DNA from: an uncultured Porphyromonas sp.
GTDB taxonomy: Bacteria; Bacteroidota; Bacteroidia; Bacteroidales; Porphyromonadaceae
Assembly (NCBI RefSeq): GCF_900539155.1
Contig: NZ_UQBE01000003.1
Reading direction: 5' to 3' (one strand)
DNA: 64,000 nt
Made by a program: the position numbers and the translations under genes. This document shows, piece by piece, positions 1 through 59,264 of this stretch. Each line of letters starts with the position of its first letter. The stretch's first letter is position 1. The notes below the pieces were generated by a model. That model searched no databases and had not been told where the DNA came from. It was given only the letters and a program-made list of their open reading frames with translations.

Positions 1-999
1 ATTCGGACAAGCGTTGAGCGCATGTATCAGAGCGTCCTGGATTTCATCTGGAAGTATCGTCTCGGGACGGTCACAACGCTCCAAAGAGACGGTGATATGA
101 TTTTCGATTCCTGCGAACTCCTTATTAAAGAGCTCCTCATAGTCGGATACTAATTCCCAGAGAGCCTCGGTGTCCTCTTCCTTGACAGAGAGCAGAGCGA
201 CCGCCTCGCGAGGTATCGCATTGCGCATGTTACCGCCGTCAATCTCAGAGACTAGTGCGCCACACTGTGCGACCGCATCCTTGAGAAGGCGCGCCATCAG
301 CTTGTTTGCATTGGCACGACCGAGATGTATGTCCACACCGCTGTGTCCGCCCTTGAGCCCCTTGATGGTAAGGCGTACACCTATCTCGTCATCGTCTGGG
401 TGATGGTTGTCTTGATACTCGAGGGAGACGTTGACATCGACTCCGCCAGCACAGCCGACGAAGAGGTCTCCCTCCACCTCGGAGTCGATGTTGAGTAGTA
501 TATCCCCCTTGCTAAAGCCGGGCTTTAGTCCGTTAGCGCCGTCCATTCCGACCTCCTCATCAATTGTAAAGAGTGCCTCGATGGGACCATGCTTTAGCGT
601 ATCGTCGGCGAGAACCGCCAGAGAGAAGGCGACGCCCATACCGTTGTCTGCGCCGAGCGTTGTGCCATCAGCGGTAATCCAGTCCCCCTCCTGCATCGTT
701 TGGATAGGGTCGGTCTCGAAGTTGTGTACCTTGTCTGAGTTCTTCTGAGGTACCATATCTAGGTGTCCCTGCAGAGTAGCTACGGGGCGATTCTCTAGTC
801 CTGGTGTGGCTGGCTTACGGATCAACACGTTGCCCACCTCATCTACATGGGTCTCTAGTCCTAGTCGCTTGCCCTCAGCAACGACATACTCCCGCACAGC
901 CTGACAGTGGCCAGTGGGGCGGGGTATCTGTGTGAGATCATAGAAGTAGCCCCATAGTGTGGAGGGGGAGAGCTTTTGGTAGTCGGCTTTATTCATCAT
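1..999 (-). CDS. pepD: Aminoacyl-histidine (Xaa-His) dipeptidase PepD, M20C family; N-terminal ~333 aa, C-terminus runs off the window start
   Basis: Own translation of the minus strand from ATG at 999 gives MMNKADYQKLSPSTLWGYFYDLTQIPRPTGHCQ...ATLQGHLDMVPQKNSDKVHNF...GTTLGADNGMGVA...LKGGHSG. These are PepD hallmarks and no stops were seen down to position 1. Not in the ORF track, likely because there is no in-window stop. The ATG overlaps the upstream gene's stop as ATGA. Confidence 0.75.
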   Translation of the reverse strand, partial: MMNKADYQKLSPSTLWGYFYDLTQIPRPTGHCQAVREYVVAEGKRLGLETHVDEVGNVLIRKPATPGLENRPVATLQGHLDMVPQKNSDKVHNFETDPIQTMQEGDWITADGTTLGADNGMGVAFSLAVLADDTLKHGPIEALFTIDEEVGMDGANGLKPGFSKGDILLNIDSEVEGDLFVGCAGGVDVNVSLEYQDNHHPDDDEIGVRLTIKGLKGGHSGVDIHLGRANANKLMARLLKDAVAQCGALVSEIDGGNMRNAIPREAVALLSVKEEDTEALWELVSDYEELFNKEFAGIENHITVSLERCDRPETILPDEIQDALIHALNACPN

Positions 1000-2057
1000 A
1001 GCTTATTCTCGTTAGTTTTTTTGGCACCTTGACTAGCGGAGTCGGAGGTGCGCTTGTAGTGTCTGTTGACAATTGGTAAGGCAAATATAGCAATAATCCC
1101 GATAACAATCGTCCAAAGCGTTTGAACCGCGTGAACGATTAGGGCAAATAGTCCCGCCTCTGGCTCACTAACTCCGAAAGCTGTGAGGGAAATGATTACT
1201 GCATAGTGCCAGGGCCCCACACCGGCGGGGGTCGGAATGGCGATCATTAAGGTGGATAGGACGAAAGTTGCGAAGGCGACTCGATGTCCTAGCTCAGCGG
1301 TGAAAGAAAACGAGTCAAAGGTAATATAAAAGTGGTAGTAGTAGCAGCCCCAGATTAGGAGTGTAAGTAAGAGGAAGTGGCTCCACGCGCGCCAGCCTCT
1401 TAGGGTCGAGGCTGCCTGTAGGACGGAGCGGAGCTTCCCTTTGAGTCGCTCGATGAAGCGACTCCTCCTGAAGCGATAGAGTACGAGTGCGATGACGAAG
1501 AGCGAGACGCCCCCGATGGTCCACGCCGTGATGTAGTCTGGTGAGAAGAAGCGTCCCCAGCCTCCTCCGAGCGATAGCCCTTGAGCAGTCAAGATTTGTG
1601 AGAATGTCCCCGTCGGCATCAAGAGCATTACGACTAGCAGTCCTAGGACGATGAACATATCTGACAGACGGTCTACTAGGAGCGTCCCGACTGTTGTCGA
1701 GAGCGTGTAGTCCTCTCGCTGCTTCATCTCGGTGCAGCGCCACACCTCGCCAGCGCGTGGTATGGCGAAGTTGACGGCATAGCTCCCTACGGTAATCAAG
1801 ATTGGATTGATAGGACGTGCGGGTGGGTCGTAGAGCGGGCGCATCTGCAGATGCCAGCGGTAGCCACGTAGGACGTTGCCGAGTAGCCCTATCGGTAGGG
1901 ATAGGAGCAGGAACTCGTAGCGCACCCCATGCCGTAGTAGGCGTAGGGTGTCAGCAAGCTCTAGGTGACGATAGAGGTAGAGCAGTATAGCTATGCCCAA
2001 GAGAAGTGGCAGGAAGTTCTTCAACCACCATTGCCAAGGTCGTCGGATTGCTTTCAC
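996..2057 (-). CDS. Polytopic inner-membrane protein, UPF0104 / lysyl-phosphatidylglycerol-synthase-TM-like (flippase-like) family
   Basis: 353-aa ORF with ~8 hydrophobic segments. Begins MKAIRRPWQWWLKNF, has the RGYRWHLQMRPL motif, and a basic C-terminal tail. Confidence 0.5.
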   Translation of the reverse strand: MKAIRRPWQWWLKNFLPLLLGIAILLYLYRHLELADTLRLLRHGVRYEFLLLSLPIGLLGNVLRGYRWHLQMRPLYDPPARPINPILITVGSYAVNFAIPRAGEVWRCTEMKQREDYTLSTTVGTLLVDRLSDMFIVLGLLVVMLLMPTGTFSQILTAQGLSLGGGWGRFFSPDYITAWTIGGVSLFVIALVLYRFRRSRFIERLKGKLRSVLQAASTLRGWRAWSHFLLLTLLIWGCYYYHFYITFDSFSFTAELGHRVAFATFVLSTLMIAIPTPAGVGPWHYAVIISLTAFGVSEPEAGLFALIVHAVQTLWTIVIGIIAIFALPIVNRHYKRTSDSASQGAKKTNENKL

Positions 2058-2121: not shown

Positions 2122-2296
2122 GAGACTGTGGCATAAAGTCGAATGGCTGTGTTGCTTTCGGGATTCGTCTTCGGTTACATACGCAGGTATGTGAGTTTCA
2201 GACCTCACCCTCAGCGCCTTGCGCTTCATCCTTTCTGCAAGGTCTAGACAACCTTGCTAGCAAGATTGTGAGCCTGTTGACTTTTGCAGCAGTCTC
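2122..2296 (+). mobile_element. 175-bp MITE-like element, copy 1, with terminal inverted repeats GAGACTGT(T)G..CA...TGCAGCAGTCTC
   Basis: Near-identical to 30725..30899 and to the reverse complement of 51922..52098. Shared internal core tgttgctttcgggattcg..cttcggt.acatacg...cagacctcaccctcagcg.cttgcgcttcatcctttctgca. Confidence 0.8.
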
Positions 2297-5930: not shown

Positions 5931-5957
5931 GAGACTGTTGACTTTTGCAACAGTCTC
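5931..5957. repeat. Solo palindromic hairpin unit GAGACTGTTG-acttttg-CAACAGTCTC
   Basis: Perfect 10-bp stem and 7-nt loop. The same unit is fused into the ends of the 175-bp MITE copies and recurs at 22157, 32452, 59094 and 59150. Confidence 0.8.
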
Positions 5958-11654: not shown

Positions 11655-11775
11655 AATGGTCTTATCTCATTGTATCCTCTACAAAGATAGACAAAAAGAG
11701 CTTAGTAGTAAAGCGAAGCGGTAAAGCTGGCGCACTTTTAGCTTGACTCATCTAATCAATTGAGACTATAAAACA

Positions 11776-12000
11776 GAATATTCACGTGGAAAATCTCAAA
11801 TCTTCACGTGGATATTTTTTATTTTCCACGTGGGCGTGATTCATTTCCTCCGAAGTTTTATTTGATTCCTCCGAAGAATTTTTTCTTCCCCACGTGGAAA
11901 ATAAAAAATATCCACGTGGAGATTTCAAAATATCCACGTGGAAATCCGTTTTCCCCGACATAGTGCCGTGTTGATATGTAGTCGGGTCTAAATTATTGTA
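11776..12000 (+). repeat. CACGTG triple-hairpin interspersed element, copy A (6 CACGTG sites; lacks the CTCTAA leader)
   Basis: atattcacgtggaaaatctcaaatcttcacgtggatat; ttttattttccacgtggg...cctccgaag x2...ccccacgtggaaaataaaaa; tatccacgtggagatttcaaaatatccacgtgg; then the conserved tail gaaatccgttttccccgacatagtgccgtgttgatatgtagtcgggtctaaattattgta. Confidence 0.85.
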
Positions 12001-22156: not shown

Positions 22157-22183
22157 GAGACTGTTGACCCTTGCGACAGTCTC
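22157..22183. repeat. Solo palindromic hairpin unit (GAGACTGTTGacccttgCGACAGTCTC)
   Basis: Variant of the MITE terminal-repeat hairpin. Followed by ataatgtgtcacccctg, the family-G inverted end. Confidence 0.7.
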
Positions 22184-22200: not shown

Positions 22201-22437
22201 CCCTCTAACCTCTAATTTCTAACCTCTAACCTCTAATTACTCTCCTTTTTCGAATATCCACGTGGAGAATCTCAAATCTCCACGTGGATATTTTTTATTT
22301 TCCACGTGGGCGTGATTCATTTCCTCCGAAGTTTCATTTGATTCCTCCGAAGAATTTTTTCTTCCCCACGTGGAAAATAAAAATTATCCACGTGGAGATT
22401 TCGAAATATCCACGTGGCGGTTTGAGATTTTCCACGT
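22201..22437 (+). repeat. CACGTG triple-hairpin element, copy B (with CTCTAA leader, 7 CACGTG/CACGTA sites; tail replaced)
   Basis: ccctctaacctctaatttctaacctctaacctctaattac leader. The three hairpin modules are as in copies A, C and D. It ends cggtttgagattttccacgtacg and runs into the GC-rich region. Confidence 0.85.
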
Positions 22438-22440
22438 ACG

Positions 22441-23160
22441 TATTAAAGCGATATGTCTAACCCGCTGTATAGACGTACGTTATGCGTAACGATGATGTAG
22501 GGACGCACGGGACGTGTAACGGTTGTAGGGACGCTCGCTCTGAGCGTCCGTTGTGTCAAAGCAAGACGAGTAATCCGTCATCGTAAAAGCTGAACATCGT
22601 AACCTTTAACGGGGACGGACGCCCTCCCGCTAGACACTCTCGTGCGTCCCTACACGGCAACGTGGGGGGATGACGGACGCACTATGACTCGAGGCTAGCC
22701 GTGACTGAATCCTGTAGGGACTTGACGGTCTGTGCGTCCGTCCCCGTCAAAGCCACGACGCTGTAACTTTTGACGCAACGGACGCACCGACCGTCAAGTC
22801 CCTACGGAGATCGGGGTTACAGCGTTTGATGAGTGGAATTGTCGTGCTGACGTAGCTTGTGTAGGGGCGGACCTGCGTGTCCGCCCGTAGAATAGACTGC
22901 GCTCAGGTGAGGACAGGCGGACACACAGGTCCGCCCCTACGGTGGAAGCCCCCCACCCCGACGAGCGGTTCCCCGAAGAGAAGTCGACCGAGCTTGCGAA
23001 ACGAGAAAAAACTTCGCTTTTTACTTGCATATGAACTTAGAAAGCGGGCTACACGTCTTGCCGTTCGACAACGGACGCACCGACGGCCTGCGTCCCGACC
23101 GTCAAGTCCCTACAGCGGGTTACTCGTAGGGTTGCCACTTGAATGTGCGATAATGCGTCA
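22441..23160. repeat. GC-rich, ORF-free repeat-dense region with nested inverted and direct repeats (units ACGGACGCAC, GTAGGGAC, GACCGTCAAGTCCCTAC)
   Basis: Exact reverse-complement pairs: 22500-22512/22641-22653 (13 bp); 22672-22682/22732-22742 (11 bp); 22603-22622/22731-22751 (18 of 19); 22711-22730 vs 22789-22807 and 23097-23115 (19 bp); and the palindrome pair 22861-22885/22917-22940 (24 of 25). Direct repeat 22776-22807 ~ 23069-23115. Confidence 0.8.
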
Positions 23161-42896: not shown

Positions 42897-42971
42897 AGGC
42901 ACCAGGGTCTGACCACCTAGCGAAGGATGACTTCGTGGGAGAGCACACGATCCGTACAGACTCCGTATTGA

Positions 42972-43035
42972 AGACTGTTGCATAAAAGCGAATCCCGAAA
43001 GCAACACAGCGATTCGCCTTTATGCAACAGTCTCT
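42972..43035. mobile_element. Foldback derivative of the 175-bp MITE (terminal inverted repeats brought together around a short core)
   Basis: gactgttgcataaaagcgaatc-ccgaaagcaacacagc-gattcgcctttatgcaacagtc gives 22-bp arms. Confidence 0.6.
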
Positions 43036-48625: not shown

Positions 48626-49999
48626 CTACTGAAAGCGAATAGGCTGACCGACCCACAGCGTAGGAGCTCCACCCTTTAGTCCACCAAAGAGATAGATATG
48701 CCCATCATCGCCACGGTATAGTGCCAAGCCACGCTGATGCGTCTGAGAAGGGTCATAGTACAGGGCAGGCAGGATAGACTCCTCTGTCAGACGCTGCCAT
48801 ACGGTACCGTAGTCGAGCGATACATAGACTCGCATCGCAGGCGATGTCGCTTGCTTAGGCTGTGTAGCAGGCTTGAGCAGTAGGATTGTCTTGTCTTGGG
48901 GCTCGTAGACCATACAGCCTGGGAGCTTGCTCGGCCAAACCTTGCTCACGCGCTTAGCGTCGTGCGGGGTGAGCCAGTCCAGTCCGTTAGAGGTGCTATA
49001 GACAAGAGCTGTCGTGTCAGCGACGGAGCCACCTATGAGTAGCTCTACGGGGTGATGCTCGATGGTAAGTGAGAGGCGAGCATTGTCCTCTAGGGGGAAG
49101 GTCTGCGGTATGCGTACACCGCTCTCACTGTTGAAGTGCAGGCCGTCGGCGGACTGGACCGCTATGAGGGGCTTATTCTCGCCCCTGTAGTATAGGTTGC
49201 CCAAGAGGTGAGAGGCTTTACCTGACAAAGCGTTGCTCTGCGCCCAGTCGCCCCCATTGGCATGACTGTAGACTACGCACTGTCCACTCTTCTGCAGACA
49301 GATGATAGCGTCACTACCGCCCTGAGCTGCAATGTCCATGATAGGCGAGTCCAGTGTCGTCGTTATCGTCACTTCTTGCCATATCTCAGGTGACTTATGA
49401 GAGGCACGCCATAAATGTTGCTCAGTGGCTGTCCGAGCGAAGTAGTAGTACGCCTGACCGTTGTCCACAAGACGACTCAGGAGTAGGTCATCCCTCGTGG
49501 CAGTTGCTGGAGCAGGGTGCGCCGATTCCGTCCAGCGGTGGGTGTATGGGTCACGGTCATAGATGTTTATCTTGAGCTGATACTCTTTTGTCAAGGCCGT
49601 ATTCTTACGATGCTGCATTACGATGCGCACACCCTCGGCGTGTTTGGACATATTGACCGTGTCAAGACCAGACGTAGAGGGTTGCTCCACGCCCCCGATG
49701 TACACCTTGGCGAGGGCATCAGGCGAAGCTGTAATCTGTAGCTTGACCCGACCAATCTTAGTCCCCTTGGGCAGTGGTCGAGCATTGTATATCAATCCCT
49801 TACGATGATCTATGGAGAAGGTCGTCTTCTCCAGCTCAGGTAGGGACTGGTCGCTCATCTGCAGTCCTGTGATTAGGACGCTCTCTACGTTGACATCCTC
49901 GACAAGAGACTTGCGCTGGCAGGAGGGCAAGCTCATCAGTGGTAGCAGAGCTACAGCTATGAGTAGGTACTTATGGAGAGATTGTATTGTGCGAATCAT
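48626..49999 (-). CDS. Conserved hypothetical lipoprotein (beta-propeller-like; DUF6242-type position)
   Basis: Start at MIRTIQSLHKYLLIAVALLPLMSLPSCQ, a lipobox LPSC. ~457 aa, beta-rich. Confidence 0.55.
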   Translation of the reverse strand: MIRTIQSLHKYLLIAVALLPLMSLPSCQRKSLVEDVNVESVLITGLQMSDQSLPELEKTTFSIDHRKGLIYNARPLPKGTKIGRVKLQITASPDALAKVYIGGVEQPSTSGLDTVNMSKHAEGVRIVMQHRKNTALTKEYQLKINIYDRDPYTHRWTESAHPAPATATRDDLLLSRLVDNGQAYYYFARTATEQHLWRASHKSPEIWQEVTITTTLDSPIMDIAAQGGSDAIICLQKSGQCVVYSHANGGDWAQSNALSGKASHLLGNLYYRGENKPLIAVQSADGLHFNSESGVRIPQTFPLEDNARLSLTIEHHPVELLIGGSVADTTALVYSTSNGLDWLTPHDAKRVSKVWPSKLPGCMVYEPQDKTILLLKPATQPKQATSPAMRVYVSLDYGTVWQRLTEESILPALYYDPSQTHQRGLALYRGDDGHIYLFGGLKGGAPTLWVGQPIRFQ

Positions 50000-50062
50000 A
50001 TAGAATACTTGATATGAAGACAAAGATACTACTTCCCTCGAAAATAACCACCGATATTGAAG

Positions 50063-50130
50063 AATTACACAGAGCTGACGCATCGTAATCGATCTGTCAG
50101 GAGCTACAGATAGCGACCAGCGAGGAGTGG
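50063..50130 (+). repeat. Family-G module, copy 2 (gagctgacgcatcgtaatcgatctgtcaggagctacagatagcgaccagcgaggagtgg)
   Basis: Matches 58694..58760 and 12030..12064. Confidence 0.7.
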
Positions 50131-50204
50131 AGAGGTAGATAAACTCATTATATATGATGAGTCTCCCCTGTACGACACCCTCTGATAGTTCCGACCCCTC
50201 CGCT

Positions 50205-50285
50205 AGCTCTGATAGCTCTGATAGCTCCGATAGCTCCGATAGCTCTGATGACTCTGATAGCTCCGATAGCTCTGATAGCTCTGAT
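50205..50285 (+). repeat. 9-bp minisatellite (AGCTCYGAT) x9
   Basis: Nine head-to-tail units with C/T variation at one position, directly upstream of the CTCTAA leader of element copy C. In frame it reads (SSD)n, inside a 45-codon micro-ORF 50154..50291. Confidence 0.85.
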
Positions 50286-50294
50286 TCCTAATCC

Positions 50295-50550
50295 CTCCCC
50301 TCTAATCTCTAATTTCTAACCTCTAATCTCTAATTACCCTCTTTTTTCGAATATCCACGTGGGAAATCTCAAATCTCCACGTGGATATTTTTTATTTTCC
50401 ACGTGGGCGTGATTCATTTCCTCCGAAGTTTCATTTGATTCCTCCGAGGAATTTTTTCTTCCCCACGTGGAAAATAAAAATTCTCCACCTGGATATTTCA
50501 AATTCTCCACGTGGAAATCCGTTTCCCCCGACATAGTGCCGTATCGATAG
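50295..50550 (+). repeat. CACGTG triple-hairpin element, copy C (full length; one CACCTG variant site)
   Basis: Leader atccctcccctctaatctctaatttctaacctctaatctctaattaccctc, three hairpin modules, then tail gaaatccgtttcccccgacatagtgccgtatcgatag. Confidence 0.85.
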
Positions 50551-51921: not shown

Positions 51922-52098
51922 GAGACTGTTGCAAAAGTCAACAGTCTCCACAATCTTGCTTGTAAGATTGTCTAGACTTTGCAGAAAGGATGAAGCGCAA
52001 GGCGCTGAGGGTGAGGTCTGAAGGGAGCATACATCCGTATGTGACCGAAGCCGAATCCCGATAGCAACACAGCGATTCGCCTTTATGCAACAGTCTAC
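51922..52098 (-). mobile_element. 175-bp MITE-like element, copy 3 (inverted orientation)
   Basis: Its reverse complement aligns end-to-end with copies 1 and 2. It carries the full hairpin gagactgttgcaaaagtcaacagtctc at its 51922-51948 end. Confidence 0.8.
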
Positions 52099-52289
52099 TA
52101 TGGAGCATCGGACTACGCACCCTCTTGTCGGAAGGTGCGGAGAGTCCCTCGCTTGAAGAGCTAATCTACCCCTCGGCTGTAACTGGCAATGCCCTCTTCG
52201 CTGGGCGCTGCGATGAATAAAAGAAAAGTGGCGACCGCTCCTCTCGAGAGAAGCAGTCGCCACTTTGGCTTATCTGTTAGGGTAGGGGA

Positions 52290-58797: not shown

Positions 58798-59093
58798 TCT
58801 GCCCTCTAATCTCTAACTCCTAACCTCTAATTAATGGGGAATTTCGTCCGATTTCCCCTCCTTTCTCGAATATCCACGTGGGAAATCTCAAATCTCCACG
58901 TGGATATTTTTTATTTTCCACGTGGGCGTCATTCATTTCCTCCGAAGTTTTATTTGATTCCTCCGAAGAATTTTTTCTTCCCCACGTGGAAAATAAAAAT
59001 TCTCCACGTGAAGATTTCGAAATATCCACGTGGAGAATCCGTTTCCCCCCCCGACATAGCACCGTATCGATATGTAGTCGGTCTAAATTATTG
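58798..59093 (+). repeat. CACGTG triple-hairpin element, copy D (full length; extra gggga..tcccc hairpin insert in leader)
   Basis: Leader gccctctaatctctaactcctaacctctaattaatggggaatttcgtccgatttcccctc, six CACGTG sites in three hairpin modules, then tail gaatccgtttcccccccgacatagcaccgtatcgatatgtagtcggtctaaattattgt. Confidence 0.85.
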
Positions 59094-59176
59094 TGAGACT
59101 GATGACTTTTGCAATAGTCTATATATAATGCGTCAGCCCTGTGCTATGAGGAGACTGTTGACTTTTGCAACAGTCT
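59094..59176. repeat. Two palindromic hairpin units (one degenerate) flanking the inverted family-G end ataatgcgtcagccctg
   Basis: gagactgatgacttttgcaatagtcta ... ataatgcgtcagccctg ... gagactgttgacttttgcaacagtctc. Confidence 0.75.
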
Positions 59177-59264
59177 CCCAGGAGGATTCTCTCTTTTTTC
59201 GTGAAGATGTCACCGACAGAGGCTTGGCTCTGTTTTGGCGAGTGGGGTAGTGTGTGACGCCCCC

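Follow-up and report, generated by a model that had tools for sequence, protein, structure and literature searches.

The nucleotide identity of the 64-kb stretch of Porphyromonas DNA analyzed here (the window) is ~90-92% with P. asaccharolytica DSM 20707; with other uncultured Porphyromonas genomes, it is 86-91%. The window contains three full copies of a repeat of 175 or 176 bp together with one decayed foldback copy and five short hairpins of 27 bp (Table 1), and all of these copies are intergenic. Copy 1 is flanked by the 3′ end of the rpmB-rpmG-DUF4295 operon on one side and by the start of the LPG_synthase_TM gene (996-2057, minus strand) on the other, and lies 64 nt upstream of this gene start. 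Copy 2 is located 34 nt downstream of a canonical terminator (30654-30691; 15-bp stem followed by TTCTT) and upstream of the riboflavin synthase gene. The hairpin end of copy 3 begins 13 nt past the stop of a Polysacc_synt gene, and the infB terminator (52225-52266, minus strand; 19-bp stem followed by a T-run) lies beyond its other end. The initial annotation described all copies as gene-terminal and intergenic; the latter is correct, but the former does not hold for copy 1, which precedes a gene start, or for copy 2, which lies between a terminator and the start of the next gene. The decayed copy is positioned between the convergent hutH and ompH genes. Among the hairpins, the one at 5931 has the stop of a 206-aa ORF on one side and that of rlmN on the other; the one at 22157 follows the stop of a gene for a PrtT-like C10 peptidase by 91 nt and adjoins a CCACGTGG-box repeat; and the one at 32453 is embedded in a composite repeat module of the form ...CACATTGT / hairpin / ATTATAATGCGTCAGCCCTG. 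Because this 52-nt composite module is itself repeated, recurring at 59090-59141 around the hairpin at 59095, the hairpins at 32453 and 59095 were probably copied passively with it.

Table 1. Copies of the 175-bp element and of its 27-bp hairpin in the window
Feature	Position	Strand	Description
Full copy 1	2122-2296	+	175 bp; TSD TAGAT at 2117-2121 and 2297-2301
Full copy 2	30725-30899	+	175 bp; TSD TTTAT at 30720-30724 and 30900-30904
Full copy 3	51922-52097	-	176 bp; left TIR tip degenerate (TAGACTG); flanking 5-mers CTGTG/CTATG, 1 mismatch
Decayed copy	42939-43034	-	Profile positions 1-75 and 18-nt inverted duplication of left end
Solo hairpin	5931-5957	.	Perfect 27 bp; flanks ATAAT and GTAAT
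Solo hairpin	22157-22183	.	Loop variant CCC, 1 stem mismatch; flanks ATAAC and ATAAT
Solo hairpin	32453-32479	.	1 mismatch; flanks ATTGT and ATTAT
Solo hairpin	59095-59121	.	Degenerate, 4 mismatches; inside composite module; no TSD
Solo hairpin	59151-59177	.	Perfect; no recognizable TSD; 88 nt past stop of batD gene

The three full copies and five solo hairpins that had been noted before are all real, although copy 3 ends at 52097 rather than one base further at 52098, and the starts previously given for three of the hairpins (32452, 59094, and 59150) were each one base too low. The full copies are similar; however, with a pairwise identity of 88-93%, calling them nearly identical was somewhat generous. 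The foldback is likewise real, lies at 42971-43034, and belongs to the longer decayed copy. This 64-bp structure is the product of the 18-nt inverted left-end duplication: the element's first 46 nt are followed by the inverted duplicate and then by a degenerate core stretch. The right two-thirds of the decayed copy are gone, it has no clear target-site duplication (TSD), and the foldback arrangement was found at this one locus only. Using nhmmer with a profile built from 26 copies, we recovered the full copies at E-values of 1e-58 to 1e-62 and, in addition, the decayed copy and the five hairpins. Moreover, the 10-mer of the terminal inverted repeat (TIR), allowing ≤1 mismatch, occurs 25 times in the window versus 5.6 times expected, a count reached by 0 of 100 shuffles. 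The enrichment of the repeat in the window is not due to chance.

The 175-bp element is bounded by TIRs of 12 bp, GAGACTGTTGCA on the left and TGCAACAGTCTC on the right, which are perfect over these 12 bp, match at 14/15 positions if extended, and are conserved across the 26 aligned copies. The core is unique and contains two internal stem-loops, i.e., CGAATC...GATTCG and ACAATCTTGC-loop-GCAAGATTGT. Consistent with a unique core in the alignment, Tandem Repeats Finder detected no tandem repeats inside the element. No coding capacity for a transposase was found, with six-frame peptides of ≤58 aa and no protein-family match among the derived ORFs tested. The last 27 nt at the right end read GAGACTGTTGAC-TTT-TGCAACAGTCTC, in which the right TIR is preceded by an inner sequence nearly identical to the left TIR, and because of this inner copy, the last 27 bp fold as a 10-bp hairpin. 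The 27-nt hairpin, GAGACTGTTG-ACTTTTG-CAACAGTCTC, is identical to the element's own right end and has a free energy of -14.6 kcal/mol. In two copies (L082:3034-3208 and L040:2485-2511), two matched changes in the stem of the hairpin (GAGACTATTG...CAATAGTCT) keep the pairing; they could reflect selection for the hairpin or templated correction within a palindrome.

Evidence that the element has moved comes from its flanks. Among 30 full copies from the window and from Porphyromonas and KA00251 loci, 16 are flanked by a perfect 5-bp TSD of varied, AT-rich sequence; two further copies have a perfect flanking duplication of 4 or 6 bp, and in most of the remaining ones the TSD is off by one base. 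By chance, a perfect 5-bp flanking repeat is expected for ~1 in 1000 copies. The strongest evidence for transposition is provided by two sister species (L067 and L083), in which independent insertions occurred 29 bp apart in a common intergenic region. Each of the two displays the unduplicated target of the other, as in the case of GAATG, which is single in L083 and present on both sides of the element in L067, thereby giving empty-site proof for the full element. The idea that the flanking 5-bp repeats are pre-existing features of the target is already contradicted at three sites. We also searched for orthologous empty sites of copies 1 to 3 in DSM 20707 and in a P. vaginalis-like contig; none were obtained because synteny breaks exactly at these intergenic regions.

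Altogether, the TIRs, the 5-bp TSDs, the empty sites in the sister species, the many copies in the clade, and the lack of transposase coding bear out the original description of the repeat as MITE-like. We conclude that it is very probably a MITE, i.e., a non-autonomous DNA transposon, that either derives from an IS5-family IS of the ISPg4 type or parasitizes it. According to this model, a DDE transposase supplied in trans would bind the 12-bp TIRs (GAGACTGTTGCA ... TGCAACAGTCTC), cut out or copy the 175-bp element, and integrate it at AT-rich sites through a cut staggered by 5 bp, the repair of which would leave the 5-bp direct duplication. In this model, we infer the identity of the transposase, the cut/paste chemistry, and the step by which 175 bp would be shortened to 27 bp.

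The likeliest kind of transposase donor, judged by the ends, is an element of the ISPg4 type. In Table 2 of PMC4596501, the TIRs of ISPg4, an IS5-family element of P. gingivalis, are given as GAGACTGTTGCA / CGCAACAGTCTC, so that 12/12 positions of the left and 11/12 of the right TIR match those of the 175-bp element. ISPg4 is autonomous and encodes a transposase. Table 2 of PMC4596501 also lists GAGACTGTTGCA / TGCAACGGTCTC as the TIRs of MITEPgRS/MITE464, and TSDs of 2-9 bp are given for ISPg elements (PMC4596501). A full-text literature search for the 12-mer GAGACTGTTGCA returned, besides PMC4596501, one unrelated P. gingivalis paper and nothing else. We found no autonomous IS with these TIRs in ~0.5 Mb of clade DNA, in a plasmid collection, or in a viral scan; for this reason, the assignment of the transposase rests on the identity of the TIRs with those of ISPg4. 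All of these searches for an IS were negative. TIR pairs lying 700-3000 bp apart in clade loci were chance pairs around ordinary genes, and long repeats common to loci of one genome reflected synteny only. Blastn of the plasmid collection gave no match. A scan of viral contigs with GAGACTGTTGCAAAA yielded mostly chance matches, with candidate ORFs that were phage proteins, and one true copy of the element in an IMG/VR contig (L150), where it is flanked by the perfect TSD GAAAT.

Among described elements, MITEPgRS/MITE464 is similar in that it occurs in the same genus, has an identical left TIR and a right TIR that is one base off (PMC4596501), and is likewise non-autonomous, intergenic, and multicopy. 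However, MITEPgRS is composed of units termed A, B, and C, the last of which is a 41-nt repeat present in as many as 14 tandem copies (PMC2575886), whereas the 175-bp element has a fixed unique core, no tandem repeats, and an inner TIR copy that makes the terminal hairpin. Because it lacks tandem repeats, the element is not MITEPgRS, as judged from the published description of the latter. BrickBuilt of P. gingivalis and ATR/ISNme1 of Neisseria meningitidis are also IS5-family-type MITEs and, like the element, have TIRs of 12-15 bp of the GAGAC...TTTGCA type; ATR is, in addition, similar in size (183 bp) and copy number, according to PMC4596501. In both cases, however, the center of the TIR differs (GAGACCTTTGCA) and the cores are unrelated, and BrickBuilt contains a 23-nt minisatellite and has irregular TSDs of 2-5 bp in contrast to the regular 5 bp of the 175-bp element. 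REP/BIME and Correia elements resemble it as short intergenic palindromes near gene ends that, elsewhere, can affect mRNA stability or termination. REPs, however, depend on RAYTs and have no TSD, unlike the 175-bp element. In Correia elements, the TIRs are 26 bp long and the duplication is TA, compared with the 12-bp TIRs and 5-bp TSD observed here; promoter and RNase III sites are documented in them. A look-alike repeat in an Armatimonadota MAG (SKW107; L036, L077, L084, L101, and L106) was set aside as a different repeat despite a TIR-like motif in common. It is a multicopy repeat with GCGACTTTTGCAACAGTCTC / GAGACTGTTGCAAAAGTC, including a 171-bp unit with TIR-like ends, and suggests that the IS5-type end sequence may be used by elements far outside Bacteroidota.

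The element thus represents a previously undescribed MITE family with ISPg4-type ends, belonging to a well-known class, that has spread through the gut and vaginal P. asaccharolytica/uenonis group. This group is of interest in colorectal cancer and vaginal microbiome work. As the first MITE family described for it, with clear diagnostic ends and a 5-bp duplication, the family is of use in typing strains, in accounting for contig breaks in assemblies, and in the correction of gene calls. It also ties the mobilome of the clade to elements of the ISPg4/IS5 type in P. gingivalis, an oral pathogen.

We determined the distribution of the family with a 17-nt hairpin pattern and one genome per species; all counts are lower bounds. 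At least 106 stretches match the pattern, of which at least 53 are in P. uenonis, uncultured Porphyromonas species, and Bacteroidales bacterium KA00251; outside of these, single matches are scattered over unrelated phyla, as predicted by chance. In total, the family numbers at least 30 full copies and about 31 solos, spread over at least nine genomes; the copies are not confined to the window. The 64-kb window has nine elements, compared with none over 42 kb of DSM 20707 and none over 21.5 kb of the P. vaginalis-like contig; none were found either in ~10 kb each of more distant relatives with RlmN proteins that are 81-83% identical. Copies are as similar between genomes (mean identity of 94.7%) as within them (95.1%); gene divergence between the host genomes is 9-14%, and their intergenic regions are unalignable. 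Four syntenic comparisons between species were available, and in none of them did an insertion point coincide exactly. Within the species of the window, by contrast, the copies are fixed: copy 1, copy 2, the hairpins at 5931 and 32453, and the foldback are present in every same-species strain contig that spans them, including 7/7 contigs read across the site of copy 2 and 10/10 for the decayed copy, with an identical intergenic length in all ten. Presence/absence variation is, accordingly, not found between strains of this species but is seen between species, the sites of which differ. This distribution fits lineage-specific bursts from a conserved or horizontally shared source, and the ~95% identity across diverged species together with the copy on a viral contig raises the testable question of horizontal spread. 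In a separate observation, copy 2 (30789-30797) differs from four strain loci (L109, L110, L114, and L115) by a 7-nt patch, GCTCCAT versus GTGAGTT, and the alternative version is the one present in copy 1 and in copies elsewhere; from the sequences, this swap looks like gene conversion between dispersed copies.

The solo hairpins had been interpreted as empty-site or solo-TIR footprints. We identified 36 hairpins outside of a recognizable core, ~5 of which are the ends of full copies that run into a masked stretch or the edge of a contig. A perfect 5-bp TSD was found around 12 of the 36 and one with a single mismatch around another nine, and thus 5-bp duplications accompany solo hairpins as well as full copies. 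Because they are flanked by such duplications, the solo hairpins are inserted units and not empty sites. The rlmN site exists in three states. In DSM 20707 and a second contig, it reads ...cccctATTATgacaaaagg..., with a single ATTAT and no hairpin; in the window, ATTAC is followed by the 27-bp hairpin and ATTAT; and in a third lineage (ten contigs), the same duplication surrounds the 20-bp sequence GAGACTGTTGCAACAGTCAC, i.e., the hairpin minus its 7-nt loop. This three-state series documents erosion in place from 27 to 20 bp and argues against excision footprints. The previous interpretation was, therefore, only partly right: its empty-site part is contradicted by the finding that the 27-bp unit has its own TSD and by the empty rlmN site of DSM 20707, which has neither hairpin nor duplication.

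Rather, the solo hairpins are, as judged from their sequences, most likely eroded or minimal derivatives of the MITE. A solo hairpin would be left after the in-place deletion of 148 bp between two 10-bp direct repeats, i.e., the outer left TIR and the inner arm, and this deletion would yield exactly the observed 27-bp sequence; the 27-bp solos could then erode further to 20 bp, and some could be copied passively in other intergenic repeat modules. Neither strain contigs nor the matching of flanks across species revealed a site with the full element in one genome and a solo hairpin in another, and for this reason we infer the deletion from 175 to 27 bp, with direct transposition of the 27-bp unit as a live but less likely alternative. 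According to this alternative, the hairpin would itself be mobile as a TIR-only mini-MITE (12 + 3 + 12 bp), with the inner arm used as an alternative left end, and the solos would be primary insertions. This would account for the varied 5-bp TSDs that the solo hairpins carry on their own, for solos being roughly as numerous as full copies, for the rlmN site being seen empty, with 27 bp, or with 20 bp but never with a full copy, for the tendency of solos at times to cluster <100 bp from each other or from a full copy (59095/59151; L023 and L048), and for the fact that a conversion from full to solo was never seen among strains. However, the deletion between 10-bp direct repeats gives an identical product with identical flanks, erosion in place is documented at rlmN, some solos are clearly carried passively inside another repeat module, and our search pattern biased the sampling toward exact hairpins. 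Moreover, the synapsis of two transposase-bound ends only 3 bp apart is sterically hard for DDE transpososomes, which counts against a mobile hairpin. We, therefore, consider independent mobility of the hairpin unlikely.

The hairpins are also short (27 nt), perfect, intergenic, multicopy, and sometimes paired, in all of which they resemble REP-type palindromes spread by a RAYT or an IS200/IS605-type enzyme rather than by a DDE transposase. However, mobility by REP/RAYT and IS200/IS605 systems creates no TSDs, whereas the elements described here have 5-bp TSDs; in addition, their ends match the TIRs of an IS5-family element, the conserved 5′ GTAG tetranucleotide is absent, and the hairpin is simply the right end of a 175-bp element bounded by TIRs. 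An origin as REP-type palindromes is, thus, extremely improbable.

It had also been proposed that the hairpin doubles as a terminator and that the core encodes a small RNA. A T-tract follows the hairpin on only 2 of 67 hairpin sides, and true terminators are located beside copy 2, copy 3, and the hairpin at 5931, just past which lies a bidirectional hairpin (AAAAGG...CCTTTTTT) that is a canonical terminator. Because canonical terminators adjoin several of the elements, the elements lie near terminators, which may reflect either a target preference or survival where an insertion does no harm; the proposal that they are terminators themselves is not supported, and the 27-bp hairpins rather serve as a warning against terminator annotation. 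In a loose terminator scan, the hairpin of copy 3, 13 nt after a stop codon, was the only one to pass, and it could contribute locally to termination. In the case of the small RNA, the proposal found no support. Rfam 15 identified only one tRNA in the whole window at gathering thresholds, and there was no match for copy 2 with its flanks at E≤10, arguing also against a known housekeeping RNA. RNAalifold on 26 independent copies predicted 51 pairs, none of which has a compensatory change; this is a weak test with little power because the copies are too similar, being 96% identical column by column. Finally, the orientation of the three window copies relative to the flanking genes is inconsistent.

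These data bear on a broader possibility, namely that the element is primarily a functional RNA module, either a small RNA gene or a 3′-end terminator or stabilizer, that is under selection and for which mobility is incidental or ancient. The ~95% identity of copies across species with 9-14% gene divergence would fit selection and is not required by a purely selfish model. The consensus folds strongly (-66 kcal/mol for the plus strand and -73 kcal/mol for the minus strand), with a fold z of -4.3 for one window copy on the minus strand; several of the most variable columns fall in predicted loops; and variability on the minus strand is lower in paired than in unpaired columns (p = 0.007, post hoc). 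Also, the window copies are all intergenic, with many near gene 3′ ends, and MITEs of P. gingivalis are reportedly transcribed, which would count in favor of this possibility. However, paired and unpaired columns are equally variable on the plus strand, the element matches no Rfam family and has 0/51 compensatory pairs, the three window copies are oriented inconsistently, T-tracts beside the hairpins are scarce, and native terminators are found nearby. Within one species, copy 2 is no better conserved than its flanks and shows the patch swap resembling gene conversion. The Bacteroidetes promoter consensus is TTTG/TAnnTTTG, unlike that of sigma-70, and inspection by eye of the element consensus revealed no TAnnTTTG motif. 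Altogether, we regard a primary function as an RNA module as highly unlikely and favor the MITE interpretation. In the composite modules at 32460-32487 and 59102-59129, the hairpin loop TTGACT and the TATAAT of the adjoining ATAATGCGTCAGCCC module match the E. coli sigma-70 consensus at 11/12 and 10/12 positions, respectively, with 16-nt spacing. Because the Bacteroidetes promoter consensus differs, these matches, which overlap two hairpins in a recurring module, were set aside as probably irrelevant.

The length of the element together with its TSD, 175 + 5 = 180 bp, corresponds to 60 codons. The consensus is open in frames +1, +2, and -1, each of which is kept open in 19-23 of 26 copies, and three or more open frames occur in 1.5% of dinucleotide shuffles. 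A protein search with the three translations returned 230 clusters, nearly all of which are short junk ORFs; about 230 clusters in public databases are, thus, largely junk ORFs read through the MITE. One cluster from a related Porphyromonas (P0252; ENA metagenome contigs) comprises 121 member sequences of a 302-aa TatD-family hydrolase, into which the frame -1 peptide is inserted as exactly 60 residues, with a duplication of the flanking "EW". The orthologues (242-250 aa), that of P. asaccharolytica among them, lack the insert and contain EW only once, and the 204 residues past the insert are intact and about 90% identical to those of the orthologues. Separately, in a putative lipoprotein family (...LLALTLTASLLLSCG...; P0227, P0231, P0233, P0271, and P0323), one or two MITE copies directly follow the first five to six codons of a putative signal peptide, in either orientation depending on the species. 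These 5′-end copies may represent either a recurrent insertion hotspot or a gene-calling artefact, the true start codon being uncertain.

Rickettsia palindromic elements (RPE) are frequent in coding sequences. The 175-bp element resembles them by its 60-codon unit, its three open frames, and its in-frame presence in an otherwise intact TatD gene, but differs in that there is one convincing in-gene case. Among the 30 genomic full copies, none is inside a long ORF, and all are intergenic or at gene edges, arguing that survival within genes is rare and that the 180-bp arithmetic may be a coincidence. We raise only tentatively, and as a somewhat doubtful possibility, that the element is shaped to survive inside genes as RPE are, adding a 60-residue module without breaking the protein, as in TatD and possibly in the lipoprotein family. 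If so, this MITE family would not only clutter intergenic regions but also give rise to insertions in proteins.

The window contains a second, unrelated repeat family, which MITE hairpins often adjoin, at 11771-11952, 22251-22444, 50348-50521, and 58867-59044, with a remnant at 32386-32434. Its members are palindromic elements of ~180-260 nt in which about eight CCACGTGG boxes, spaced by ~22 bp, surround two TTCCTCCGAAG direct repeats, and on one side they join runs of TCTAACC/TCTAATC heptamers and a CAGGGCTGAYRCATTAT motif. This family is found in many Porphyromonas loci, including DSM 20707, and, compared with other strains, the copy at 32386 lacks 152 bp internally. Beside one CCACGTGG-box element, a 9-bp tandem repeat (CTCTGATAG and variants, about 13 units) occupies 50180-50303, just upstream of the DUF6242 gene (48626-50083, minus strand).
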